64,000 nucleotides of DNA from Spirochaeta lutea. GTDB lineage: Bacteria; Spirochaetota; Spirochaetia; DSM-27196; Salinispiraceae. The stretch is from NCBI RefSeq assembly GCF_000758165.1, contig NZ_JNUP01000067.1:77646-141645 (forward strand), read 5' to 3'. Each line of letters starts with the position of its first letter. Position 1 is the first letter of the stretch. The notes beneath the pieces are model-generated. The model was given only the letters and a program-made list of their open reading frames with translations, had not been told where the DNA came from and made no database searches. Both the position numbers and the translations under genes were made by a program. This document shows, one piece after another, positions 39,328 to 55,916 of the stretch.

Positions 39328-40989
39328 TCAGATATCCCGGCTGTCCCGGATCCGCATATCTGCTGTCAGGCACTCCAAGGACATCCCCAATTCCTTGTTC
39401 CCCTCCACAAAGGGAACCCGTTCCCGAAGCCAGTCCACCAGCGCCGGGGCCGATCCCGGTCCTGTGCCGGAATCTGAGCCCAGCCCGGAAACAGCCAGCC
39501 ATGACCCAAACCGCAGTTCCCAGGCCTGACCCGCAACGGCAAGCCCGTGGGCAGCACAGAGGTAGGCCAGGTCCAGGGCCTCTCCAAGCTTCAACGCGGA
39601 AACCGTCCCCATGGAAACCACATCCTGGTTCTGACTCTCGGTAGGACGGGTGAGGACCGAAACCGGTCCGGCGGTATGTTGCGCCTCTGCGGCCAGGGCG
39701 CTGGTCGTAATCCCCAGGGCCTTGAGGCCGAAGCGCGGCCCCTGACGGGTTTGTCCATTCCAGGGATCCTCATCACCCCCTCCGACCCCCTCCTCCCCGG
39801 GAGGAACCAGATTATCGGGCAGGATTCCCCGGCTATCCAGGAGCTGCTGGACCTGACGGTCCATCAGGGTTGTGGTGGTAGGAAGGGCGATGCGCAGGTA
39901 ATCGCAGGCCGCCGAAATATGCCCGCCGAAGAAGTTACCGGTATGGTAGACCCGGCGGTCCAGGGTATCGAAGAGGGGATTATCATTAGCCGAATTCAAT
40001 TCATCTTCTATCCAGGGTTCGATAGCCTGGAGGGTATCCCAGAGCACCCCGTTCATCTGGGGGGCGCAGCGCAGGCTGTATCGGGGCTGTATATTACTGG
40101 ACCGCCGGCGCATACTTTCCCGAAAGCCCGGGTCGCTGGGGGTATCTGCTATCCTGTGGCTAGGCCGGGCCGGGTCGCTGATGGGAGTAGGATCCAGACC
40201 GCCCCGGCGGCGGATGATCTCCCCGGAGGTTCGGGGTCCGGGATGGTGCTTCTGCCGATGCACCCAGTCTTCGAAGGGCTCTCGGGGGGTATTCAAGGCC
40301 GCAGCTCCCAGGGCCGTGCAGGCATCGGCCCAGGCAGCAAGGCTCTCGGTCTGGCACCAGTACACCCCCGCCAGGGCTGTCATTACCGCTGTGCCGTTCA
40401 TCAACGCCAGACCCTCCTTCATCTCCCACTTCCAGGGCTGAATTCCCCGTTCTTCGAAAACCTCCCGGGTATTCTTCACCTCCCCCCGATACCAAACCCG
40501 TCGCCCCCCGGCCAATACCGCCGCCAGGTAACTGAGGGGGGTAAGATCGCCGCTGGCACCCACACTCCCGCGGCTGGGAATTACCGGTGCGATACCGGCA
40601 TTAAAGACCGCCGCCATATGCTCCAGGAGCTCCGGGCGGATTCCGGATACGCCGCGGCAGAGGCTCACTATCCGGGTAAAAAAGACAGCCCGGGACATAT
40701 TCTCATCCAGAACCGGCCCCACCCCCGCACCATGATACTCTATAACCCCTTCCTGGAGGGCTGAACGCCACTGGGGCGGAATATGCAGGTCGCCCTGGGC
40801 CCCGAACCCGGTGGTAACCCCATAAATGGCCTCTCCCCGACGTTCCAGATCCTCAAGGAGAAGCCTGGATTTCCGAGTCTTCTCCAAGACCTCGGCATCC
40901 AGGACCAACTCCGCCCCCCGGGTATACACCCGGTAAAGTTCACGTAATGTGATTTTTTTATCACAAATTGCTATTTTTTCCTTGACCAT
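39328..40989 (-). CDS. Aromatic amino acid ammonia-lyase (HAL/PAL/TAL family), here most likely tyrosine ammonia-lyase for p-coumarate synthesis.
   Basis: MIO-forming Ala-Ser-Gly triad in [16 protein letters not shown]-terminal GVTTGFG, and YSLRCAPQ block. Located divergent to pyp and next to a 4-coumarate-CoA ligase. Confidence 0.85.
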
Positions 40990-41054
40990 TTATCCCCCTA
41001 TACCTATATTTGTACCTATACTTAGGTATAAGACTACCGTATGGAGGAAAAAAT

Positions 41055-41432
41055 ATGGAAGTAATTAACTTTGGATCCCAGGATATGGGAAACGTCATGG
41101 CAAAACTCGGAGACGGAAAGATAGACGACCTGGCCTTTGGAGCAATCAAACTGGACAAAGACGGTACAATCCTCTCCTATAACCAGGCTGAAGGAGCTAT
41201 CACCGGCAGGGATCCCCAAGAGGTAATCGGGAAAAATTTCTTTACCCAGGTCGCACCATGTACCAACCAGCCGGGTTTCTTCGGAAAGTTTCAAGACGGG
41301 GTGGCAAAAAATGAGCTGAACACCATGTTTGAATACGTGTTTGATTATAAAATGCAGCCTACCAAGGTAAAGGTCCACATGATGAAGGCCCAGATCGGGG
41401 AAGGCTACTATATCTTCGTAAAGCGTATCTAG
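41055..41432 (+). CDS. pyp: Photoactive yellow protein (125 aa).
   Basis: Colinear with Halorhodospira PYP, with conserved Tyr42, Glu46, Thr50, Arg52 ([13 protein letters not shown]) and chromophore Cys69 (QVAPCTN). C-terminus [22 protein letters not shown]...IFVKRI. GGAGGA RBS. Confidence 0.9.
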
Positions 41433-41508
41433 TACCTAGACCCCGCACCTGGCGACCCCTGCTCAAAAGGGGTCTGCCATCGCCGAATCACCCCCGGGAG
41501 GACCCCCC

Positions 41509-42744
41509 ATGAAACTGCCCCGAAGCATGATAGAACGCTTTGTTCTCGATTTTGTTACCTACCACCTTGCTGCGCTTCGGGGGCAGGGGGGCGGAAACGA
41601 AACCGGCGGAAACACATCCCCCCAAACCGGACTGAGTATCCCCCAGAAAAACCGGGAACAGCTTTGGACAACATCCTTTCATGCAGACCCCTGGTTCATG
41701 GACAGCCTGGAGCTGGTAACCCTCGCGGGCATGATGGCGGAAAGTTTTCATATTCACCGGGTGGGAATTGAGGATATGCTCCTGGCAAAACCCAGTCTCA
41801 AGGACTGGTCCGAACTCGTTGAAACAAGCCTTCAACACTATGACCGGGAACTCACATTTTTTACCTCCGGCAGCACCGGACTCCCCAAAGCGGTAGCTCA
41901 CCGCACCCGGCTCCTGGAGGAAGAGGTGGATCACCTGGCCGAGACCGTAACAAAAAGCCTTTCCAAGGCCGGCCAGGGCCCTCCCCGAGAAATTCTATCC
42001 ACCGTTGCCAGTAACCACATCTACGGCTTTCTATTCACCATCCTACTTCCCTTGGCCCTAGATATCCCCGTAAGGCCCCTCAGCGGGCTATCTCTAAACC
42101 TAGATGCCGGTCAGATACTAGTAACCATTCCCAACCTCATCCGCAGCTGGCACACCCGATCCCCCTCAGCCCCAAAACAAGGCATGGTACTCACCTCTAC
42201 CGCACCCCTGGACCGGGAACTTGCGCAGTGGCTCGATTCCGGCCCCATCCCCTGGATGGAGGTCTACGGCTCATCAGAGACCTCAGGTATAGCCTACAGG
42301 CAGCGGGCTGAAGACAGCTTCACCCTCCTGCCCTACTGGACTCCATCCCCGGATGGTCAAAGCCTGAGCAGGCAGGGTCTGGAGGAACCGGCGGACCTTC
42401 CCGACCTGGTGGAATGGGACACTCGAACCACCCTGCGGCCCCTCGAACGCAGGGACCAAGCCGTGCAGGTTTCCGGAATCAACGTCTTCCCCCGGGAGAT
42501 CGCCCGGCAGCTGGAAACCAACCCCCTGGTATCAGCAGCCCGGGTGCGGCCCATGGAGACCCCCGGGGGTACCCGGCTGAAGGCCTTCATTGTACCCGCC
42601 GACCCGGCCGCCCCAACCCAAGAAACGGAACAACGCCTCCGGAGTTGGGCGGCATCCCGCCTGCCCGGAACCAGCCGCCCCGCCAAGTACAGCTTCGGCC
42701 CGCGAATACCCGCGAATGCCATGGGCAAGGAGCAGGACTGGTAG
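41509..42744 (+). CDS. p-Coumarate-CoA ligase (adenylate-forming enzyme; PYP chromophore-activating pCL).
   Basis: AMP-binding P-loop FTSGSTGLPKAVAH. About 410 aa short ANL-family ligase. Synteny with pyp and TAL. Confidence 0.75.
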   Translation: MKLPRSMIERFVLDFVTYHLAALRGQGGGNETGGNTSPQTGLSIPQKNREQLWTTSFHADPWFMDSLELVTLAGMMAESFHIHRVGIEDMLLAKPSLKDWSELVETSLQHYDRELTFFTSGSTGLPKAVAHRTRLLEEEVDHLAETVTKSLSKAGQGPPREILSTVASNHIYGFLFTILLPLALDIPVRPLSGLSLNLDAGQILVTIPNLIRSWHTRSPSAPKQGMVLTSTAPLDRELAQWLDSGPIPWMEVYGSSETSGIAYRQRAEDSFTLLPYWTPSPDGQSLSRQGLEEPADLPDLVEWDTRTTLRPLERRDQAVQVSGINVFPREIARQLETNPLVSAARVRPMETPGGTRLKAFIVPADPAAPTQETEQRLRSWAASRLPGTSRPAKYSFGPRIPANAMGKEQDW

Positions 42745-43105: not shown

Positions 43106-43693
43106 ATGGCAATGATAAAAAGCGCCCTCGATCTGGCCCTGGAACGAACCAAGGATATCGCCAGCGACAAAGCCTCCCTCAGGGCGAAAGAAACAAAAGA
43201 GCGGGGCATGCGGTTATTTTCCCAAATCTACGATTCCCCGGACTTCGACGCCGCTCAGGAAATCACCAAGGCCCCGAAAGAGGATCAGGAACAGCTGCGA
43301 AGAGGCCTGTTCCAAACCGCCCTGACCCGGCTCCAGCTTCCCCAGACCGAGGCGGCCCTCCATGACCTTCCCGCTGTAACCCGGGCCCTGATCGCCACTG
43401 GAGCGGAAGCCTCGGCGGCAACCCAGATCATGGATCAGCTCCAGAGCCTCTTTGACCGCTACCTCCAGGACCGTGACCAGCTCTACAACGCAGTGGTCCA
43501 GCAGTATACCCCGGTTCTCCGGCAGAAGGAGCAGCAGCTTGCCCAACAGACCGGCCGTAAGGTAACCCTAACCCCGGAACAGGACCCGGAGTTCCAGAAA
43601 TACTTCAAACAAAACCTGGACCAACTGGAAGAACAGTACCAACAAATGGTGGATCAAGCCCGGAGCCAGCTTCAGACCCTCACCGGCCTGTAA
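43106..43693 (+). CDS. Hypothetical helical, Gln/Glu-rich protein.
   Basis: 195-aa ORF with coding-like composition. No motifs recognised. 47 bp upstream of the cyclase gene. Confidence 0.4.
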   Translation: MAMIKSALDLALERTKDIASDKASLRAKETKERGMRLFSQIYDSPDFDAAQEITKAPKEDQEQLRRGLFQTALTRLQLPQTEAALHDLPAVTRALIATGAEASAATQIMDQLQSLFDRYLQDRDQLYNAVVQQYTPVLRQKEQQLAQQTGRKVTLTPEQDPEFQKYFKQNLDQLEEQYQQMVDQARSQLQTLTGL

Positions 43694-43740: not shown

Positions 43741-46700
43741 ATGCAGACCCAAAGCAACCATGGGCATCTTAAACAGGGAGACCGGCGGAATGTCACCGTC
43801 CTGTTCACCGATCTGGAGGACTTCACCCGGCTCTCCCAGGACCTGGATCCAGAAGAAACCGAGCAACTCATGGATACGGTATTCTCCAGTTTCGAGCAGA
43901 TCATCCGGCGACACGAAGGAACGGTTGAAAAATATATCGGCGACGCCCTGGTAGCAGTCTTCGGCACCCCCAGAATTCATGAGGACGACCCCGTACGGGC
44001 TGTACATGCAGCCCTGGATTTTTACCAGGTTGTACGCCGGCTGAACCAGGGCTTCACCACCCACAACCAGGGGCTGCGGTTCAGGACCGGAATTCACACC
44101 GGCCTCATCACCACGGGGAAGCGGGGTGATCACACCGTGGTGACCGGCCACACCATGAACATTGCCGCCCGATTACAGAGCGCCGCCGACCCGGGAACCA
44201 TTCTGGTAAGCGAACAAACCCACCAGGAATGCGGCGGGGAGTTCGCCGTATCACCGCCCCAGGAGATCAAGGCCAAGGGCATCAGCGACCTGATCTCAGC
44301 CCGAAAGATTCTCGGGCGCAGCCCCCATTCCCTTAAAGATGAACGGTTCTTCCTCGGCAACACCGACCTGGAATCCGAGATTCTGACCGCATACCTTCGG
44401 TTTGACGGTACATCCCCCGGGGGATTTCTCCTGGAAGGAGAGCCCGGTTCGGGCAAAACGGCCCTGGCCAAACACATCATCAGTAAACTCAGGGCCTTCC
44501 CCGACTTCCAGGCCCCGATCCTCCACGCCCGGGCGCGCAAGTTCCGCAGCCGCCCCTTCGCCGTCATCACCGACAGCATCATCAACACCCTGCACCTCTC
44601 CCCGGACAGCGCCCCCGAAGAGATCACCGCCGCCCTGGAACACCAGTACAGGATCCCCCAATCCTCCGCCCGGGCTTTCCCCGCCACCCTGGAGCTGCAT
44701 TCCAAGGACAAGGCGCCGGGGGACTACCTGCCCATGCTCACGGAAATCTTCCGGGCCATCCTCAGTACCCCGACCCCGGGGCCCTACCAGCCCATCATCT
44801 TCGTCGACAATACCGATTTCATTGATCCCCAAAGCATGGCGTTTTTCCGGTTCTACATCCGTCAAAGTCAGCAGTTTCCCTTCTTCCTCTTCACCGACCG
44901 CCACCCGGGGGAGGATATCTGCTCCCTCTTTCCCGACATCGAGGTCCGGGAGGTTCCGCCTCTGGGGACGGTGGACGCCCAGGCTCTGATTCAGCATCTT
45001 CAGGATCAATACCAGCTTCCTCTCAAACACGAAGATGTTCAGCGAATTCTGACCAGCGCCGGGGGCAATCCCCTGTTCCTCCAGAGCTACATCCGGTACA
45101 TGGCGGAACACCACGAAGAACAGAATCCCGTGGAGGTACCGTCAACGGTACAGAACGTGTATCTGGCAGAGCTGAGCACCTATAACGATGATGTACGGGA
45201 TTTGCTAAAGAAACTATCGGTGTTTAACCATTCCTTCTCCCTGGCTGATGCCCAGTGGATGCAAACCCAGACCCAGGGGGATCCCGGTTTAGTAACCCGG
45301 GCCCTGGAGTTCTTCCTCCAGCAGGATATCATCACCCAGGAAAACGACATCTACTACTTCCGCCACGATGTACAGAAAAAAGCGATATACAACAGTCTCC
45401 TAAACTACAACAAACGTATTCTGCACCGCCTCATCGCTGCCCGCATGAGAATGCAGGATCATCCCCATCCGGTCCGGCTGGTTCACCACCTTGTGAGGAG
45501 TGAAGCCTACCAGGAAGCCTTGGACGTACTAAAGACCGCTCCGGACCGCAGCGTGAACCTGGATTTTCTGCCCTATCTTGAACTCATGGAATCAACCTTC
45601 CAGGGGGATGATCTGGATACCCAGCTGAGCATCCAGTTCAGCCGTTGTGCTATTCTCTTTAATAACGGGCGCACCAAAGAGGCCGACACCATCGTACAAA
45701 AAATCCTCAGCACCGCTATATCCCGCCAGCATCTGCCCTCCGCAGCCCGGGCCTACCACCTGTTAACCGGGTATAATGCGAAAAGTTTCCGGTACAATAA
45801 GGCATCCTACTGCGGCATGAAGGCCTTGGATTTTTACCGCCGCAGCAACCCCGAGCACCCCGCCCAGGGAAACCTGCTTCACATTCTTGTGGGTATGGAA
45901 ACCGCCCGGGGTTCTGTGAACCGGGCCCAGGAGCTCCTTGATGAGCTTGATCAAACCGCCCGGGATGTCCCAGCCATCCGGTTCGCCGCCGACTTCGCCC
46001 GGATAGAATTCCTTGAAATTCAGGGGCTGTACCGGGATGCCCAGGACCGTCTGGCTGCCCTGCCGGATACCTTCCAGGATTCGGATGTTCCCCTCTACAA
46101 GGAGCGGTTTATGGCGAGTCTGGCATGGAACCGTCTTGATCTGGAGCAGTTTCTGTCGGTAGCTCCGGCTATTATCCAATCTCCCAGCCAGGATGCAGCC
46201 ACCCGGGCACGCCTCAGCGCCCGGACTGCCTTCGCCCGGCACTCCCTTCTGGGTTTCGCCCCGGGAGATTACCTCGACCAGGCAGCCTTCTACAGCCTTA
46301 GGACCCAAAACGATTTCGATCTGCTCAGCGCTGAAGCCGGACGGTCCCAGGTTCTGGCTTGTCTGGGAGAATACGAGAAGGCCGAGGCAGTCGCCCGGGA
46401 AACCCTCTCCCTGGCCCTGCGGCACTCGGCCTTCCACCCCGCCTTTACCCTGCTCATGGTGCTTCTGGAAACGGCCGTCATACGGGGAAATCAGAAGGAG
46501 ATTGAGTTTTATCTGATTGAAGCAGAGCATATCCATCGCCAGGGCATGTACTTGGATCCCCTGGACACCATTCAGTACCGCTATTTCAGGGCCATCCACC
46601 TGCCTGCCGGCTGCCAGCCCAGGCCGGAGGAGGAGCTCCAGGAGCTATGGAGCCGTACCCTGGAAAACCTCCAGGGAGAGAGGGGCGTTGAAATCCTCCT

Positions 46701-46758
46701 GGGAATGAGAAATTTTGCAGAAATTCAGAAAAGTCTTGAAAGCCGTACCCGGTCATGA
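43741..46758 (+). CDS. Class III nucleotidyl (adenylyl/guanylyl-type) cyclase domain fused to a STAND/AAA+ P-loop NTPase and a C-terminal TPR-like helical repeat region.
   Basis: Cyclase homology domain: RNVTVLFTDLEDFT (metal Asp), KYIGDALVAVFG (second metal Asp), GIHTGLITTG. Walker A LLEGEPGSGKTALAK about 230 aa in. About 550 aa of helical repeats follow. No HTH seen at the C-terminus. Confidence 0.8.
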   Translation: MQTQSNHGHLKQGDRRNVTVLFTDLEDFTRLSQDLDPEETEQLMDTVFSSFEQIIRRHEGTVEKYIGDALVAVFGTPRIHEDDPVRAVHAALDFYQVVRRLNQGFTTHNQGLRFRTGIHTGLITTGKRGDHTVVTGHTMNIAARLQSAADPGTILVSEQTHQECGGEFAVSPPQEIKAKGISDLISARKILGRSPHSLKDERFFLGNTDLESEILTAYLRFDGTSPGGFLLEGEPGSGKTALAKHIISKLRAFPDFQAPILHARARKFRSRPFAVITDSIINTLHLSPDSAPEEITAALEHQYRIPQSSARAFPATLELHSKDKAPGDYLPMLTEIFRAILSTPTPGPYQPIIFVDNTDFIDPQSMAFFRFYIRQSQQFPFFLFTDRHPGEDICSLFPDIEVREVPPLGTVDAQALIQHLQDQYQLPLKHEDVQRILTSAGGNPLFLQSYIRYMAEHHEEQNPVEVPSTVQNVYLAELSTYNDDVRDLLKKLSVFNHSFSLADAQWMQTQTQGDPGLVTRALEFFLQQDIITQENDIYYFRHDVQKKAIYNSLLNYNKRILHRLIAARMRMQDHPHPVRLVHHLVRSEAYQEALDVLKTAPDRSVNLDFLPYLELMESTFQGDDLDTQLSIQFSRCAILFNNGRTKEADTIVQKILSTAISRQHLPSAARAYHLLTGYNAKSFRYNKASYCGMKALDFYRRSNPEHPAQGNLLHILVGMETARGSVNRAQELLDELDQTARDVPAIRFAADFARIEFLEIQGLYRDAQDRLAALPDTFQDSDVPLYKERFMASLAWNRLDLEQFLSVAPAIIQSPSQDAATRARLSARTAFARHSLLGFAPGDYLDQAAFYSLRTQNDFDLLSAEAGRSQVLACLGEYEKAEAVARETLSLALRHSAFHPAFTLLMVLLETAVIRGNQKEIEFYLIEAEHIHRQGMYLDPLDTIQYRYFRAIHLPAGCQPRPEEELQELWSRTLENLQGERGVEILLGMRNFAEIQKSLESRTRS

Positions 46759-46770
46759 CAGAATACGAGT

Positions 46771-47211
46771 ATGAACGACTTTGAAGTACTCCAGGGAGTA
46801 CCACTTTTTAAGGCTCTGAACCCGAAATACCTCAAGACCATTTACAAGGCCTGTACCCGCCGGGATTTTGCACCCGGAGAGTACCTGGTAGAACAGGGAA
46901 CCCAGGGAGTTGGGCTTTTCATCATCGAGAGCGGTTTGGTGAAGGTCATTAAAACCCGCACAGACGGAACCATCATTGATGTGGCAAAACACGGTCCCGG
47001 AGAGTTTATCGGGGAAATGAGCATTATTGACGGTGCTCCCCGGTCAGCAAGTGTCCAGGCTCTGGAGGCGACTCAATGTCTTGTACTCTCAAGCTGGAGC
47101 TTTCAGTCCATTCTGGAGGCCCATCCCGAGGTGGCCTTGGGAATCCTCCCCATGCTGGCTAAACGCTTTCGGGAGACCAACGAGGCGCTGCTCAAGGCCC
47201 AGGGTGAATAA
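46771..47211 (+). CDS. Stand-alone cyclic-nucleotide-binding (CAP/CRP effector-type) domain protein.
   Basis: Phosphate-binding cassette GEFIGEMSIIDGAPRSASVQA with the conserved Arg. Beta-roll context. 146 aa with no DNA-binding domain. 12-nt gap from the cyclase gene. Confidence 0.8.
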   Translation: MNDFEVLQGVPLFKALNPKYLKTIYKACTRRDFAPGEYLVEQGTQGVGLFIIESGLVKVIKTRTDGTIIDVAKHGPGEFIGEMSIIDGAPRSASVQALEATQCLVLSSWSFQSILEAHPEVALGILPMLAKRFRETNEALLKAQGE

Positions 47212-47228
47212 CCGGTAGGATCGTCGCC

Positions 47229-48275
47229 ATGTTACCAGGAAGAACGGTTCGCATCCTGTCCATTGATGGCGGCGGTATCCGGGGCATTATTCCGGCCCTG
47301 CTTCTCCATCACATCAAACAGAATCTTGAGGCCCGGGGGCAGGAGAAACCCTTTGCCCGGATCTTCGACCTTGTCGCGGGCACCTCCACCGGGGGCTTGA
47401 TCGCCCTGGGGCTCACGGCTCCGGATACCGAAACCCCTCCGGCATCAAACCTGCTCTCCTGGCTGACTCGCCGCCGCCCGGAACCGAAACTGGGCATCAT
47501 GAACCTGGTGGATTTCTACCGGAAACAGGGAGAGTCTATCTTTCCCTCCCGGGGATTCCACCGCTGGAGGAACCTTGCCCAGGCGTTTACCGAAAAATAC
47601 GATACCCAGGCACTAGAAACCATCGCCCGGGACATCCTGGGCGACCTTACCCTGCGTCAAACCCTCTGTCCTGTATTGATTACTGCCTACGACACCACCC
47701 GAATGTCCATGCAGCTTTTCCGGACCACCAAGGCCCGGATCGATAAGAAGGAAAACTTCTACCTCCGGGATGTTCTCCGGGCCACCAGCGCCGCTCCAAC
47801 CTACTTCGAGCCCCACCAGCTCAGTCCGGTAGACCGGCCGGACCTGGAGTATACCATGGTGGACGGTGCGGTGTTTGCCAACAATCCCGCCCTCCTGGCC
47901 TACTACGAGGCGAAGCGGATTTTCCCCCTGGCAAAACGCTTTGTCATTGTATCCCTTGGAACGGGACGGCAGCAGCGCAGCTACGAGTACGACCAGATGC
48001 AGCGCTGGGGCTTCCTAGACTGGATCAACCCCCTGAAGGGCGTCCCCCTGCTCACCATGATGAACTCCGCCCAGAATCAGCTGGCCACCTACCAATTGGA
48101 TCGTGCCAGGGATGTAGACTATATCCGCCTGGACCGCGCCCTGGAGGGCTGCAGCGCCCGGATTGACGATGCCAGCCCCCGAAATATCGAGTGCCTGGAA
48201 GAGTTTGTAGAAAAAATCATCGCCAGCTCCGAACCCGAGCTCACCCGCATAATCAACCTTCTTAAGCGAGCCTAG
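47229..48275 (+). CDS. Patatin-like phospholipase.
   Basis: Oxyanion DGGGIRG, lipase pentapeptide GTSTG, catalytic Asp in MVDGAVFANNP. 17-nt gap from the cNMP-binding gene. Confidence 0.85.
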   Translation: MLPGRTVRILSIDGGGIRGIIPALLLHHIKQNLEARGQEKPFARIFDLVAGTSTGGLIALGLTAPDTETPPASNLLSWLTRRRPEPKLGIMNLVDFYRKQGESIFPSRGFHRWRNLAQAFTEKYDTQALETIARDILGDLTLRQTLCPVLITAYDTTRMSMQLFRTTKARIDKKENFYLRDVLRATSAAPTYFEPHQLSPVDRPDLEYTMVDGAVFANNPALLAYYEAKRIFPLAKRFVIVSLGTGRQQRSYEYDQMQRWGFLDWINPLKGVPLLTMMNSAQNQLATYQLDRARDVDYIRLDRALEGCSARIDDASPRNIECLEEFVEKIIASSEPELTRIINLLKRA

Positions 48276-49914: not shown

Positions 49915-50367
49915 ATGTCATATCAACGGACCTTTGCCATGCTTAAACCAGGAGTGCTGCAGCGCAGGATTTCCGGCGATATAATTTCTCGGATTGATCG
50001 CAAAGGGTTGAAGATTCTTGCCCTAAAAATGATGGTGATTGACAAGCCCCTGGCAGAGCGGCATTACGCTGAACACCAGGATAAACCGTTTTTCACGGAG
50101 CTGGTTTCCTACATGACCAGTGGACCGGTGTTGGCGATGGTATTGGCGGGGGAACATGCTGTCCATCAGCTGCGGGTACTCTGCGGTCCTACCAATCCCG
50201 ACCAGGCGCCTCCGGGGACTATCCGGGGGGATTTTTCGGAGATCATGAATAGAAACGTTATCCACGCATCGGACTCTCCCGAGAGTGCCGAGCGGGAAAT
50301 AGGCCTCTTTTTTACAGACCAGGAAATACACGAATACGAGGACGATAATGATAAATGGATCTACTAA
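49915..50367 (+). CDS. ndk: Nucleoside diphosphate kinase.
   Basis: RTFAMLKPGVLQRR...NVIHASDS contains the catalytic His. About 150 aa. Confidence 0.9.
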   Translation: MSYQRTFAMLKPGVLQRRISGDIISRIDRKGLKILALKMMVIDKPLAERHYAEHQDKPFFTELVSYMTSGPVLAMVLAGEHAVHQLRVLCGPTNPDQAPPGTIRGDFSEIMNRNVIHASDSPESAEREIGLFFTDQEIHEYEDDNDKWIY

Positions 50368-52789
50368 GTCTCCGGCTTTTACTGCCGGGGGCAGCGGCGG
50401 ATTAGCCGGGGACGCCGGCGGGCTTGGGGTATCCGGCAGCAGCGGCTTAGTCGCGGGCAGCGGCGGAGTGTCCGGCGGATTAGCCGGGGGCGCCGGCGGG
50501 CTTGGGGTATCCGGCAGCAGCGGCGGAGGGCTCGGATATGCCGCAGGTGGCGGCCCCCGGATGGCTGCGGGTGCTTCTGGGGGAGCTGGTGGAACGGGGG
50601 TCGTCTCTTCCCCCATGGCATCCTCCGGGGGCGCCAGTGCCTCCGGTTCGGGTTCCGGTGCCTCCGGTTCCGGTGCTTCGGGTTCCGCTTCCGGTGCCTC
50701 CGGGGCCGGGTATAGTGCCGGGTCCCCCGGGGGAAACCGAACCCTGAAGAGCCCTCTGGGTGATGTGACCGACCTCGGGGATCCCCAGCTCTGGCAGCTG
50801 GAGTCGGTGTACCCCGGGCTCGACAGCCCTCAGTATAAAGGAGATATCCAAGAGCTCCGGGAGCTCATAGAACGGGCCAGTAAGGTCTTTGCCGAGGAAC
50901 CGGACTCCCAAACCAGGGCTGTAGAGTGGCTCACCCAGTGCCTGGATCTTCAGGCCCGGATCGCCACCCTGGACGAAACCCTGGAAAGCTATCTCTATTG
51001 CCGGTACTCCACCGATACCAGAGACAGTGCCGTCATGGCGGAACTGAACGCCGTGGAAGCCATGGTGGTGCCGGCAAAAACGGCCCAGGTGGTGTTCCGC
51101 AACAGCCTCGCCCGGGCCTGTTCCCGGGGATTTTTCGGCAGGGCGTTGGCGGACCCCCCGGGGTCGAGCCGTGGAGCCTCCCAGGCCCGGGAGGTATCCC
51201 GGGCCATTCGTGAGAGCTTGGCGGATCTTCCCCCCGGACTTGCCGATTTTCGGTTTGTTCTGGAAGAGGCCCTGGAGGAACAGAAGCACCAGATGAGCCC
51301 TGAGCTGGAAGACCTCGCTGCTGATCTAAACCGTTCCGGCGGTGAGGCCTGGGGCCGGCTGCAGCAACAAATTTCTTCCAACCTCTCCATGCCCTGGAAG
51401 AACCCGGGTGAATCGGATAAAACGCCGGGAACGCCCGCCGCCCCAGCCTCTTCCCGGGATTCCGCCGAGGGATCCAGGGCAGAAGACCCTTCAGGTTCTG
51501 TAGAACAACCCGATCAACCCCAGCGAAAAACCGTCATCGAGCTTCGATCCCTGGCCTTCGATCCGGACCGCCGAATTCGAAAACAGGCCTACGAGCTTGA
51601 GCTGGAGGCATGGAAACAGGTGGAAATACCCATGGCGGCAGCCATAAACGGGGTAAAGGGATTTTCTATAAGCATTGATTCGCGCCGGGGCTATGAAGAA
51701 TCCCTGGACCGCTCGGTAGCCCTTAACCGCATAACCCGGAAAACCCTGGATGCCATGATTTCAGCCATGGAACAACACCTGCCCGACTTCCACCGGTACC
51801 TCCAGAAGAAGGCGGAGCTGCTCGGCTTGGAACGCCTCTCCTTTTACGACATCTTCGCTCCCCTGAAGGCCCCGGACTCACCTGAACCCGCCCCACCCCG
51901 GAACAGCGGCCGGGATCAGTCCTTTCCCAGCACCTGGAGCTATGAACAGGCCGGAAATTTCATCATCGAAACCTTCCGGGGCTTCAGCCAGGACCTGGGC
52001 GACTTTGCTGCAAAGGCCTTTGAGTCCCGGTGGATCGACGCGCGGCCCCGCCCGGGAAAGATCGGAGGCGCCTACTGTACCGATCTGCCAAAGCCCGGAG
52101 AAAGCCGTATCTTGGCAAACTTTGACGGCAGTTTTTCCAGTGTTTCCACCCTGGCTCACGAACTCGGCCACGCCTATCACAGCTATGTGCTCCGGGACCA
52201 GCCCCAGCTCCTGCGCAGCTACCCCATGACCCTGGCGGAGACCGCATCCATCTTCTGTGAAACCATTATCTATAACACTGCCATTGAGAATTCAGGGGGA
52301 TTCCAACGTCTGAGCCTCATCGAGGGCATTCTCTCCGAGAGCACCCAGGTGATCGTAGACATTCTCAGCCGCTTTTATTTTGAGCGGAATCTCTTTGGAT
52401 CCCGAAAGAACCGTGAACTGAGCCCCGACGAGCTCTGCCAGGCCATGGTCCAGGCTCAGAAGGACAGCTACGGCCCGGGACTCAACCAGGAAGAACTGCA
52501 TCCCTACATGTGGGCAGTAAAGGGCCATTACTACAGTCCTGAACTGGCTTTTTATAATTTCCCCTACGCTTTCGGACAGCTCTTCGGCCTCGGACTCTAC
52601 GCCCAGTATAAGGAGAACCCCAGAGAGTTCCCGGAAGCCTACCGGACCATCTTGGTAGAAACCGGCCGTGCCAACGCAGTGGATGTCTGTAAGTCGGCAG
52701 GCTTCTCCATAGAAACCCCGGACTTTTGGAATCAGGGACTTTCTGCTATAGTCAATTTTGTGAACATCTTCACCAAGGGATCAACATGA
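50348..52789 (+). CDS. pepF: M3-family oligoendopeptidase F with a ~120-aa Gly/Ser/Ala-rich N-terminal extension. The true start may lie further downstream.
   Basis: Zinc motif HELGHAYHS, with downstream PepF-like blocks. The N-terminal low-complexity region is encoded by a 51-bp direct repeat. Stop overlaps the gpsA start (ATGA). Confidence 0.75.
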   Translation: MINGSTKSPAFTAGGSGGLAGDAGGLGVSGSSGLVAGSGGVSGGLAGGAGGLGVSGSSGGGLGYAAGGGPRMAAGASGGAGGTGVVSSPMASSGGASASGSGSGASGSGASGSASGASGAGYSAGSPGGNRTLKSPLGDVTDLGDPQLWQLESVYPGLDSPQYKGDIQELRELIERASKVFAEEPDSQTRAVEWLTQCLDLQARIATLDETLESYLYCRYSTDTRDSAVMAELNAVEAMVVPAKTAQVVFRNSLARACSRGFFGRALADPPGSSRGASQAREVSRAIRESLADLPPGLADFRFVLEEALEEQKHQMSPELEDLAADLNRSGGEAWGRLQQQISSNLSMPWKNPGESDKTPGTPAAPASSRDSAEGSRAEDPSGSVEQPDQPQRKTVIELRSLAFDPDRRIRKQAYELELEAWKQVEIPMAAAINGVKGFSISIDSRRGYEESLDRSVALNRITRKTLDAMISAMEQHLPDFHRYLQKKAELLGLERLSFYDIFAPLKAPDSPEPAPPRNSGRDQSFPSTWSYEQAGNFIIETFRGFSQDLGDFAAKAFESRWIDARPRPGKIGGAYCTDLPKPGESRILANFDGSFSSVSTLAHELGHAYHSYVLRDQPQLLRSYPMTLAETASIFCETIIYNTAIENSGGFQRLSLIEGILSESTQVIVDILSRFYFERNLFGSRKNRELSPDELCQAMVQAQKDSYGPGLNQEELHPYMWAVKGHYYSPELAFYNFPYAFGQLFGLGLYAQYKENPREFPEAYRTILVETGRANAVDVCKSAGFSIETPDFWNQGLSAIVNFVNIFTKGST
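50396..50525. repeat. Two copies of a 51-bp direct repeat (GGCGGATTAGCCGGGG-R-CGCCGGCGGGCTTGGGGTATCCGGCAGCAGCGGC) at the 5' end of the pepF ORF.
   Basis: Direct reading. Copies at 50396-50446 and 50475-50525 differ at one position. Confidence 0.75.
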
Positions 52790-53980: not shown

Positions 53981-54565
53981 ATGGCCCGCGCCAAGGATCA
54001 GGAAAAACGGCAACTCATTCTCACCACCGCCAAGGCCCTCTTCGCGCGCCAGGGCTTTCACAACACCAGTGTCAGCCAACTGGTAAACCAGCTCGCCATC
54101 CCCGTAGGCTCCATCTACACGTACTTCCCTTCCAAAGAAGAAATACTCCAAGCCATCATCGAAGAGGGCTGGCAGGACCTTAAAACCGCCCTGGACCAGG
54201 AACTCACCCAAGCAGCCTCCCTGGAAGCCCAACTCGAGATTCTGGTGTCCAGCGTACTCCCCCGGCTCTTTCAGGACACGGATCTCATCTCAATCATCCT
54301 CAGCGAGGGTCTAGAAATCTCCCGATTAGACGAAAAAATCGACAGCCTCATCACCCTGGTTCTCAACCTCCGCAAAGAAGCCGGCCTCATGGAACTCTCC
54401 TCCGCCGACCCGGCCCTAACCAGAATTCGGACGGCAATAATTATCTATTTTCTCGGACTCATGAACGCCGCCAGACTCTGCACCCGAACCCCCCTGGGCA
54501 TCTCCCAGGCGGATCTGCTCAGCTTCATCCGAGACCTCATTCACCGTGAACTCGCTCTTTCCTAG
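53981..54565 (+). CDS. TetR/AcrR-family transcriptional regulator.
   Basis: N-terminal HTH ILTTAKALFARQGFHNTSVSQLVNQLAIPVGSIYTYFPSKEEIL. Confidence 0.8.
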   Translation: MARAKDQEKRQLILTTAKALFARQGFHNTSVSQLVNQLAIPVGSIYTYFPSKEEILQAIIEEGWQDLKTALDQELTQAASLEAQLEILVSSVLPRLFQDTDLISIILSEGLEISRLDEKIDSLITLVLNLRKEAGLMELSSADPALTRIRTAIIIYFLGLMNAARLCTRTPLGISQADLLSFIRDLIHRELALS

Positions 54566-55629
54566 GGTGATTTTACTGCCACCGGCAGGACAAGACCTTT
54601 TTTCTGTCCCCCGCCCTCTCGCCGAACCGGACTAAGATAGGGAGACTTCCTCCACATGGTTCGCAGCAAGGCACCACGGAACAGCCGCACCAAGGGTCGA
54701 ATCCTTCGTGTCCTTTCTCCCACCATGGTGTAATACTCCTCCAGAGTAACGCGCTGGTACCCCAGCAACTCCTGGCCCTCCCGGGTATCCATGAATCCAC
54801 AGTGAAAATCTGCCGTCGAAAACGCATTCTTCTGGAGAACCGCCCCCTCCATTCCGAAATAGGCCAACATCCGGGTAAGGTAGGCTGCGAAACTGGTTCG
54901 GCAATCCCGCCCCCCGGCGATATTAAAAATCTTCCGGCTGCCGGCGGGGTTTTCCACCCCTCGTATGAAGGCCCGGGCAACATCGTCAGCATGGCAAATC
55001 TCAATATCGGTATCCAAGGGCATCTCGAACATCAGGGGATCCCGCTGCAGCTTCTCAGGGCTTACCACATAGGTCAGCCGTAGCACCCGCCAATCCACAT
55101 CCGAACGGCGAACCAGGTCCTCAGCCGCAGCCTTCTGGATCGCATACCCATCCCGGTTCCCCGGAGAAACCGGGTCTCCCACCCGTATTTCCCCCGTTCC
55201 CCGTCGATCACCATAAATCGCTATCGATCCGGCATAGGCCAATACGGGCCGCTGTTTCCGGGGTATCGCCTCCAGCACCTTCAGCAGGGTCCGGGTGCCC
55301 CCCACGTTCACGGCCTCCGCCAAGGCTGGATGACTCTCCGAAGCCGGGGGAATCACGGCAGCCAGGTGAATCACCCCCTGGCAACCTGCTACAGCCTTTT
55401 CCAAAACCCCATAGTCGGTCACCGAGCCCCAAAAAATCTGGAGCAGGCTGTGTTTCGGCAGACTGCGCATGACCTCAAGACGCCGGGCGAACCGCCCCAG
55501 GCGCCTGATACTCCCTCGGGAACGGCGGTTGGCGACCTCTACCGCCCGCACCCGGTAGCCATCCCAGAGAGCCTGACGCACCACCGACCGACCCACCAAT
55601 CCACCCGCTCCGGTTATCACCAGTGTCAT
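54562..55629 (-). CDS. NAD-dependent epimerase/dehydratase (extended SDR family). Start placed at MTLVITGAGG; the ORF is open further upstream.
   Basis: Rossmann TGAGGLVGRSV. Catalytic YxxxK context (DGYAIQKAAAE). Confidence 0.7.
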   Translation of the reverse strand: MTLVITGAGGLVGRSVVRQALWDGYRVRAVEVANRRSRGSIRRLGRFARRLEVMRSLPKHSLLQIFWGSVTDYGVLEKAVAGCQGVIHLAAVIPPASESHPALAEAVNVGGTRTLLKVLEAIPRKQRPVLAYAGSIAIYGDRRGTGEIRVGDPVSPGNRDGYAIQKAAAEDLVRRSDVDWRVLRLTYVVSPEKLQRDPLMFEMPLDTDIEICHADDVARAFIRGVENPAGSRKIFNIAGGRDCRTSFAAYLTRMLAYFGMEGAVLQKNAFSTADFHCGFMDTREGQELLGYQRVTLEEYYTMVGERTRRIRPLVRLFRGALLRTMWRKSPYLSPVRREGGGQKKGLVLPVAVKSP

Positions 55630-55809
55630 ACCGCCCTCCTCTCCAACTTTGAACGAACATTCATTCTTTATTATACATCGGAAGGAACAGAAATTCCAGG
55701 ATAACCCCATCACCCGGCATAGATTAGACGGAACCCCTCCCAGGGTGGAAAAGAGATGTAAGCCCCGGCTTGTCACTACCCCGGGAATTGTGTATATTAT
55801 GCCCACATC

Positions 55810-55881
55810 GGCGCCGTACCCAAGTGGTAAGGGAGAGGTCTGCAAAACCTTCATGCACCGGTTCGAATCCGGTCGGCGCCT
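55810..55881 (+). tRNA. tRNA-Cys (anticodon GCA). CCA is not encoded.
   Basis: Acceptor GGCGCCG/CGGCGCC, D-arm CCC-AAGTGGTAA-GGG, anticodon stem GAGGT/ACCTT with loop CTGCAAA, T-arm ACCGG-TTCGAAT-CCGGT, discriminator T. Confidence 0.8.
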
Positions 55882-55916
55882 CTTTTTTTCCGTTCCTCTC
55901 GGAACGGTTTATATAC

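Follow-up and report, generated by a model that had tools for sequence, protein, structure and literature searches.

The spirochaete Spirochaeta lutea carries three co-directional genes, here called g1, g2 and g3, that encode a class III cyclase joined to a STAND NTPase and, at its C-terminus, a TPR-like array, a stand-alone cyclic nucleotide monophosphate (cNMP)-binding protein, and a patatin-like phospholipase. They were analyzed within a 64,000-nucleotide stretch of contig NZ_JNUP01000067.1 (assembly GCF_000758165.1, positions 77,646 to 141,645 of the forward strand), hereafter the window, whose numbering is used throughout. All three lie on the plus strand: g1 (WP_037548986.1, 1005 aa; open reading frame (ORF) list, Pfam, AlphaFold model and PDB matches) at 43741-46758, g2 (WP_037548989.1, 146 aa; Pfam and model) at 46771-47211, and g3 (WP_037548992.1, 348 aa; Pfam and motifs) at 47229-48275. 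The S. lutea protein WP_037548986.1 is 100% identical to the g1 of the window. The original prediction, made from the DNA alone, had described this layout with spacers of 12 nt (g1-g2) and 17 nt (g2-g3) and with intact catalytic and ligand motifs in all three genes; ORFs and spacers re-read from the sequence agree with it, and each motif that it named was found. Pfam matches to Guanylate_cyc, cNMP_binding and Patatin are strong, the match to AAA_16 is borderline and that to TPR weak. Promoter and terminator scans gave nothing above shuffled expectation, and an Rfam scan of window positions 38-50.5 kb returned no matches.

The g1 protein combines three modules. Pfam places Guanylate_cyc at residues 15-180 (E 2.8e-25, 89 bits) and AAA_16 at residues 213-378 (32.3 bits; cut-off 32.6), with weak matches to TPR_12; the AAA_16 family (PF13191) appears in the precomputed annotation of all g1 homologues. 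No helix-turn-helix (HTH) family was detected in g1 by Pfam. The AlphaFold model (pLDDT 85.8) continues as a helical TPR structure through to the C-terminus, and its best PDB match is 6mfv, a STAND and TPR protein, followed by class III cyclases at TM 0.8-0.9; Apaf-1 is matched as well. The cyclase homology domain, delimited by alignment to CyaC (1wc0) and Cya2 (2w01), covers aa 12-195 (43774-44325), the STAND nucleotide-binding domain aa 200-460 (44338-45120), and, in the model, a winged-helix/arm region (aa 461-600) leads into the TPR-like helical array (aa 601-1005; together 45121-46755). Model and Pfam thus bear out the Walker-A NTPase and TPR repeats of the original prediction, but the array is about 400 aa long (about 600-1005) and not 550. 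Full-length homologues with 34-52% identity number more than 100, so g1 is not a chance ORF.

The residues of the cyclase domain were read from an alignment to CyaC, Cya2 and 27 family members. The metal-binding aspartates D24 and D68, together with K64 and R144, are invariant across the family, and the GIHTG motif lies at 117-121. The base-specifying pair is Lys64/Thr132 in the window, with Thr as in the class IIIb enzyme CyaC; relatives mostly carry Asp at position 132 and so have the adenine pair in its classical Lys/Asp form. From this pair we infer that g1 uses ATP as substrate and yields cyclic AMP (cAMP). The transition-state residues are N140 and R144. An apparently active cyclase had been predicted, and metal, substrate and transition-state residues are all in place on alignment.

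The Walker A motif of the NTPase, GEPGSGKT at 232-239, has G233, G236, G238 and K239 invariant in the family, and the Walker B motif has the form hhhhD356. The residue that follows the Walker B Asp is usually acidic. The window and most of the 28 aligned members instead have Asn after Asp356 (window 44797-44811, g1 353-357), which suggests nucleotide binding with slow or absent hydrolysis. Mean identity to the window protein falls from 54% in the cyclase domain to 48% in the arm and 28% in the TPR part. An exhaustive HMMER search with residues 200-1005 (NTPase and TPR) yielded 55 representative clusters at E <= 1e-30. Their members are either fragments or proteins about 1000 aa long whose match begins near residue 200, with space ahead of it for a cyclase-sized domain; beyond these 55 clusters, matches cover the NTPase part alone and involve many other STAND proteins. 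The confinement of the joint match to full-length relatives and fragments argues that the TPR module is specific to this family and has never been recombined with other effector domains, unlike the sensors of Avs type.

The g2 protein consists solely of a cNMP-binding domain with a PRSA phosphate-binding cassette, as had been predicted and as Pfam (cNMP_binding, E 5e-23), model and alignment agree. The cassette runs Gly81-Glu82...Arg91-Ser-Ala93, with G81, E82, R91 and A93 invariant in 49 homologues, and the C-terminal helix (ILPxVVKRFRETNEAL) is unusually conserved. At 50% identity or above, g2 has about 110 clusters of homologues of about 138-161 aa (mostly 145-152), and every named organism among them is a spirochaete. 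The model (pLDDT 89.6) superposes on the cAMP-binding domain and C-helix of GlxR/CRP at TM up to 0.85, and by this superposition g2 corresponds to a CRP-like sensor domain with its long C-helix, lacking the DNA-binding domain. GenBank and JGI label g2 and its homologues 'Crp/Fnr family transcriptional regulator'. This label is misleading: because g2 stops after the C-helix, at residue 146, without a helix-turn-helix, it cannot be a CRP-type transcription factor. The canonical GE...R[ST]A cassette and a fold nearest to the cAMP-binding GlxR/CRP proteins support a dedicated cAMP receptor as the best reading of g2.

The third gene was predicted to encode a complete patatin lipase, and the Pfam match (Patatin, E 5e-26) and motifs confirm this: the GGGIRG oxyanion loop, GTSTG with Ser53 and DGA with Asp212, which supply the Ser53/Asp212 dyad. 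Its relation to the phospholipase effectors of CBASS defence systems is one of broad similarity. The NCBIfam model CBASS_lipase (NF041079) scores 178.4 bits, under its 200-bit cut-off, the PADLOC model for CBASS phospholipase effectors scores 218 bits, and proteins named CBASS phospholipase are 38-39% identical to g3; among PDB entries, the plant patatin Pat17 (104 bits) and the CapV-like chains 9wn1 and 9kh6 (103 bits) match about equally. In other spirochaetes, homologues with 42-46% identity are found singly among metabolic genes (loci L004 and L092), and none of the 120 closest g3 homologues listed contains a cNMP-binding domain. At locus L091 a protein is named 'CBASS phospholipase' by its source although no adjacent gene gives a CD-NTase Pfam match, and the name is therefore model-driven. 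The residues by which CapV contacts cGAMP are given as F147, K149, D159, E207 and R279 in PMC12480259; mapping of these contacts onto g3 was abandoned, as the PDB chains do not follow the AbCapV numbering and the residues vary between CapVs.

The genomic setting of the genes was compared by searching six-frame ORFs of the genomic and metagenomic contigs of relatives with the window's own proteins; the locus counts for the trio are those among the matches listed. g2 directly follows g1 in 16 sampled loci (the window, L001, L005-L010, L012, L013, L015, L021, L085, L086, L088/089 and L090). Most of them share a gene string with the order 5-FTHF cyclo-ligase, DUF6657, g1, g2, (g3), (trypsin-like protease, minus strand), NDK, PepM3 (oligopeptidase F), GpsA, TetR and epimerase (minus strand), in which the parentheses mark genes that are not always present. 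At least one flanking gene of the string was detected in 13 of the 16 loci, the window itself being the reference, and the 13 include S. africana (L085) and the complete genome of Salinispira pacifica (L090, CP006939), which keeps the gene order of the window over about 15 kb except that the patatin is missing. No flanking string gene was detected in L008 or L021, on contigs of 6 kb and 8 kb. Carriers of the module thus comprise Spirochaeta lutea, S. africana, Salinispira pacifica and many metagenome-assembled genomes (MAGs). As to placement in a defence island, the prevailing pattern among the sampled spirochaetes with g1 and g2 side by side is the opposite, a fixed housekeeping string and no island, which is the outcome that the original prediction had named as counting against it.

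A further seven g1 homologues, more distant at about 32-37% identity, are found at other places and are without g2. One g1 relative from the g2-less clade, P0228 (1157 aa, L087 8001-11474), ends in a fused cNMP-binding domain of divergent sequence. The contig has many fragmented genes, and a read-through of g1 into g2 was considered and ruled out, the cNMP part being only 24% identical to g2; P0228 is kept as a single, independent fusion of cyclase and cNMP-binding domain. At 3-8 kb downstream of it lie a transposase HTH, an AcrVA2-like gene and a type IV secretion system (T4SS) coupling protein, so this copy, unlike the syntenic ones, may lie near a mobile element.

The patatin gene is distributed differently from the other two. 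It follows g2 in six of the 16 loci (the window, L001, L007, L008, L085 and L086) and is missing from the other ten, and in one lineage, L002/L003, the DUF6657 gene is followed directly by a patatin, without g1 or g2, at the same locus. Where g3 is present next to g2, it sits immediately downstream, 2-20 nt apart, in five divergent lineages. The conserved core is g1 plus g2, and g3 is an accessory, dispensable gene; the three-part architecture proposed at the outset is not a fixed requirement. Two of the patatin-bearing loci, L007 and L008, are contigs of one MAG (DATKUC010000152 and DATKUC010000188), each with a near-identical g1-g2-g3 trio, and this pair could be strain heterogeneity or duplication.

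The distribution of g3 bears on an alternative in which g1 and g2 form a signalling pair and g3 is an unrelated housekeeping lipase of the conserved polycistronic string near gpsA, its position reflecting gene-order conservation only. The ten g1-g2 loci without patatin are consistent with this alternative, as is L002/L003, where the patatin start overlaps the DUF6657 end by 4 nt, and the patatin homologues standing alone in metabolic contexts point the same way. Conservation of g2 does not follow the presence of g3 either, its identity to the window being 66% in the patatin-less S. pacifica and 54-56% in the patatin-bearing L085 and L086. Nor are the short spacers informative: since the string genes of relatives lie within a few nucleotides of each other or overlap, as do the 5-FTHF cyclo-ligase gene, the DUF6657 gene and g1 in Salinispira pacifica, such spacers are weak evidence of specific functional coupling. 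A chance association fits less well with the position of the patatin, invariably next after g2 across the five lineages, and with a trio that has stayed intact while its g1 sequences drifted apart to about 36% identity; the pairing of cNMP-binding and patatin domains also has a precedent in the NTE/PNPLA6-7 family (PMC9025805 and PMC7103881). On balance we hold an unrelated g3 to be unlikely.

To follow the inheritance of the trio, neighbour-joining trees of g1, g2 and g3 were compared. They are congruent, and loci with g3 are interleaved with g3-less sisters; the trio is therefore ancestral to the clade, and three or more losses of g3 followed. Across loci, identity to the window is 33-50% for g1, 54-67% for g2 and 42-51% for g3, within the span of the flanking genes (NDK 56-64%, PepM3 45-49%, GpsA 64-77%, trypsin 34-48%). 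The trio diverges at the rate of its housekeeping neighbours and is vertically inherited. Its GC content (0.574-0.579, against 0.56-0.62 in the neighbourhood) is unremarkable, the neighbouring genes are metabolic, and no mobile or defence genes were found near the trio; PADLOC, run on ten neighbours, gave generic domain matches only and no defence system. Among 72,556 plasmids there was no full-length g1 relative, and among 50,697 phage records no DNA match.

These results speak to the headline of the original prediction, an undescribed defence system resembling Pycsar, CBASS and Avs. In such a system the STAND/TPR module would sense a phage protein, the cyclase would raise the alarm, g2 would receive it, and the CapV-like g3 would destroy the membrane in an abortive infection. 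PADLOC matches each part, with PycC models on g1 (best 58 bits, plus a weak mad8 match), PycTIR cNMP domains on g2 (60 bits) and the CBASS phospholipase scores given above for g3, and the STAND and TPR fold is confirmed in the g1 model. A clade of STAND-fused cNMP cyclases has been assigned to immunity (bioRxiv 10.64898/2026.08.12.744502), and the layout found here occurs in no catalogued system, the original prediction likewise not having recognized it from such catalogues; literature searches on the layout of three parts, on the accessions and on cAMP modules of spirochaetes returned nothing relevant. The matches, however, are best read as domain-level resemblances, because the generic Pfam cyclase model scores higher (89 bits) than PycC and the plant patatin (104 bits) equals CapV. 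No PADLOC Avs model matches g1, whose TPR part appears in combination with no other effector, and the supposed effector g3 is missing from ten of the 16 loci that keep sensor and receptor, and stands alone in L002/L003. Add to this the fixed syntenic locus, the congruent vertical inheritance with housekeeping-like divergence, and the lack of defence neighbours and of plasmid or phage copies in the collections searched, and abortive infection becomes very unlikely as the function of the trio.

The fixed string, the congruent trees, the neighbour-like divergence and the absence of an island signal together leave the defence reading unsupported. Synteny, tree congruence and divergence favour instead the alternative that the original prediction had mentioned in passing, a housekeeping module of cAMP and lipid signalling, and the trio is probably a module for cAMP signalling that free-living spirochaetes carry on the chromosome and inherit vertically, and not a mobile immune system. 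Several observations pull the other way. Asn140 is replaced by Ser or Ala in about half of the g1 family, some members of which may be weak cyclases. The near-cut-off CapV score of g3, and a latent lipase activated by a ligand, would suit a role in abortive infection. An immune role has been proposed for a clade of fast-evolving cNMP cyclases with STAND fusions (NACHT, AP-ATPase; bioRxiv 10.64898/2026.08.12.744502). The loci compared are those among the matches listed and not a census of spirochaete genomes, and the product of g1, the ligand of g2 and all protein contacts are inferred.

STAND NTPases are ATP-dependent oligomerization switches, as in MalT, Apaf-1 and Avs, and class III cyclases need to dimerize to form their active sites. 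Taken together, these properties lead us to propose a model in which a ligand of the TPR array triggers oligomerization and cAMP synthesis. The STAND NTPase of g1 would bind ATP; an encounter of the family-specific TPR array with a cellular ligand or partner would cause g1 to oligomerize; and oligomerization would pair the N-terminal class III cyclase domains into a dimeric active site that would turn ATP into cAMP. The cAMP would be read by g2, which, having no DNA-binding or output domain, must act through protein contacts, the near-invariant C-helix being their probable surface. The strict adjacency of g1 and g2 and the P0228 fusion point to g1 as a partner, and g2 would most likely act on g1 itself, by feedback or by scaffolding through the TPR array. 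Where g3 has been retained, g2 may in addition gate this patatin and so remodel membrane lipids.

This last step, the coupling of g2 to g3, is less likely than not. It is supported by the fact that g3, when present beside g2, always follows it immediately, and by the existence of NTE/PNPLA6-7 fusions, but it is weakened by the conservation of g2 irrespective of g3 and by the persistence of each gene without the other. A stronger version would make the trio an ancient chromosomal pathway with a cAMP-gated lipase, in which the HTH-less g2 would hold the CapV-like g3 inactive until cAMP binds, much as the regulatory subunit of PKA restrains the catalytic subunit. We consider this version improbable; if it were true, the pathway would be a housekeeping counterpart, or the evolutionary source, of the cyclic-nucleotide-activated phospholipases of CBASS.

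Under the favoured reading, a vertically inherited signalling module, the analysis defines a spirochaete-specific pair, a predicted STAND-gated adenylate cyclase and, as its dedicated partner, a predicted stand-alone receptor for cAMP (about 146 aa), accompanied by an optional patatin. To our knowledge, cAMP signalling in free-living spirochaetes is essentially unstudied, and we know of no account of how STAND ATPases control cyclase output even in the mycobacterial enzymes; the g1 family, with its conserved small partner and optional lipase, would offer a tractable model for cyclases under STAND control. The locus also holds a caution for defence mining, in that even a housekeeping locus with vertical inheritance can give domain-level matches to models of PycC, cNMP effectors and CapV, and synteny combined with gene-tree congruence is a quick means of telling the two kinds of locus apart.

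Immediately upstream of g1 lies the DUF6657 gene (43106-43693, plus strand, 195 aa; Pfam), whose highly charged, Gln/Glu/Lys-rich product has no family match beyond the DUF. It directly adjoins g1 in L005, L006, L009, L010, L085, L088 and L090, with a 4-nt overlap onto the start of g1 in Salinispira pacifica (L090), and lies upstream at a distance in L011 and L015. The gene may be a further member of the g1-g2-g3 transcription unit. Downstream, the oligopeptidase F (Peptidase_M3) ORF at 50348-52789 encodes 813 aa, compared with 620-661 aa in syntenic relatives, and seems to contain an extra segment of about 150 aa, its start being unchanged relative to NDK. The epimerase ORF as listed by program (54562-55854, minus strand) shares its 5' end with a tRNA-Cys (GCA) at 55810-55882; its Pfam domain begins only at residue 76-79, and the true epimerase start is probably further inside the ORF.

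The genes for 5-FTHF cyclo-ligase and DUF6657 lie side by side in every other spirochaete locus in which the two were detected, but in S. lutea an insertion of 3.5 kb comes between them. It is a complete photoactive yellow protein (PYP) cassette (39328-42744) made up of a tyrosine-ammonia-lyase (TAL)-like aromatic lyase (39328-40989, minus strand), PYP itself (41055-41432, plus strand, 125 aa) and a p-coumarate-ligase (pCL)-like gene (41509-42744, plus strand). The protein matches Halorhodospira halophila PYP over its full length (186 bits, E 3e-54) and keeps the chromophore-site residues Tyr42, Glu46, Thr50, Arg52 and Cys69; the literature searched contained no paper linking PYP to Spirochaeta. 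The pCL ligase is present in 69 of 77 metagenomic PYP loci, and L093, the closest locus (77% identity), shows this cassette too, with TAL on the minus strand, in a different context. PYP, 2.3 kb upstream of the trio and on the same strand, was considered as a photoreceptor input to it and rejected: because none of the 77 PYP loci has g1, g2, g3 or DUF6657 within 9 kb, the adjacency appears to be coincidental.

Comparison with defence systems returns likenesses in single domains, and membership in Pycsar, CBASS and Avs each fails on at least one defining feature tested. Like Pycsar and Pucsar, the locus places a class III-type cyclase next to a gene for a cNMP-binding domain, with weak to moderate PADLOC matches. 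In contrast to Pycsar effectors, g2 has no TIR or transmembrane domain, and its close homologues listed are all of about 138-161 aa; where a PycC cyclase would yield cCMP or cUMP, g1 has purine-type determinants (Lys/Thr-Asp), together with a STAND fusion; and the patchy, defence-island distribution of Pycsar has its opposite in a fixed, vertically inherited locus without defence neighbours. With the CapV proteins of CBASS, g3 shares a broad patatin clade, but it falls below the NCBIfam cut-off and matches a plant patatin equally well, and no CD-NTase Pfam match was found among the neighbouring ORFs scanned (about 32.8-59.3 kb) or called in related loci. As in Avs, g1 is a STAND NTPase with a C-terminal TPR-like sensor, matching 6mfv and Apaf-1; Avs sensors, however, recombine with varied N-terminal effectors and occur sporadically in islands, whereas the corresponding part of g1 does not recombine and its locus is fixed. 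The cyclases of 'Immune clade 1' are named as NACHT and AP-ATPase fusions in bioRxiv 10.64898/2026.08.12.744502, while g1 has AAA_16, and conservation and synteny argue for placing g1 with the 'physiological' cyclases.

Closer counterparts are found among signalling proteins. g2 resembles GlxR, M. tuberculosis CRP and T. thermophilus CAP (TM 0.78-0.85, 28-34% identity), but aligns only to the N-terminal ~140 residues of these 214-228-aa proteins and has no HTH. The NTE/PNPLA6-7 family (PMC9025805 and PMC7103881) has cNMP-binding domains fused to a patatin domain; g2 and g3 are separate genes, and g3 is of the plant-patatin/CapV type. g1 itself belongs to a known kind of adenylate cyclase with an N-terminal cyclase, an AAA_16/MalT-type NTPase and TPRs. 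It shares with M. tuberculosis Rv0386, Rv1358 and Rv2488c the order of class III cyclase, P-loop STAND NTPase and helical/TPR array (for Rv0386, bioRxiv 10.1101/2024.03.06.583649), TIGR03903 matches its residues 11-600 at 115 bits, and, among the matches listed, Guanylate_cyc-AAA_16 proteins of Actinobacteria, Chloroflexi and rhizobia are 24-29% identical to it over residues ~15-600. From the Rv0386 type it departs in lacking the C-terminal LuxR-type HTH and in a TPR half specific to the spirochaete family, and it is followed by a dedicated stand-alone cNMP-binding gene, a companion undescribed for the mycobacterial cyclases.

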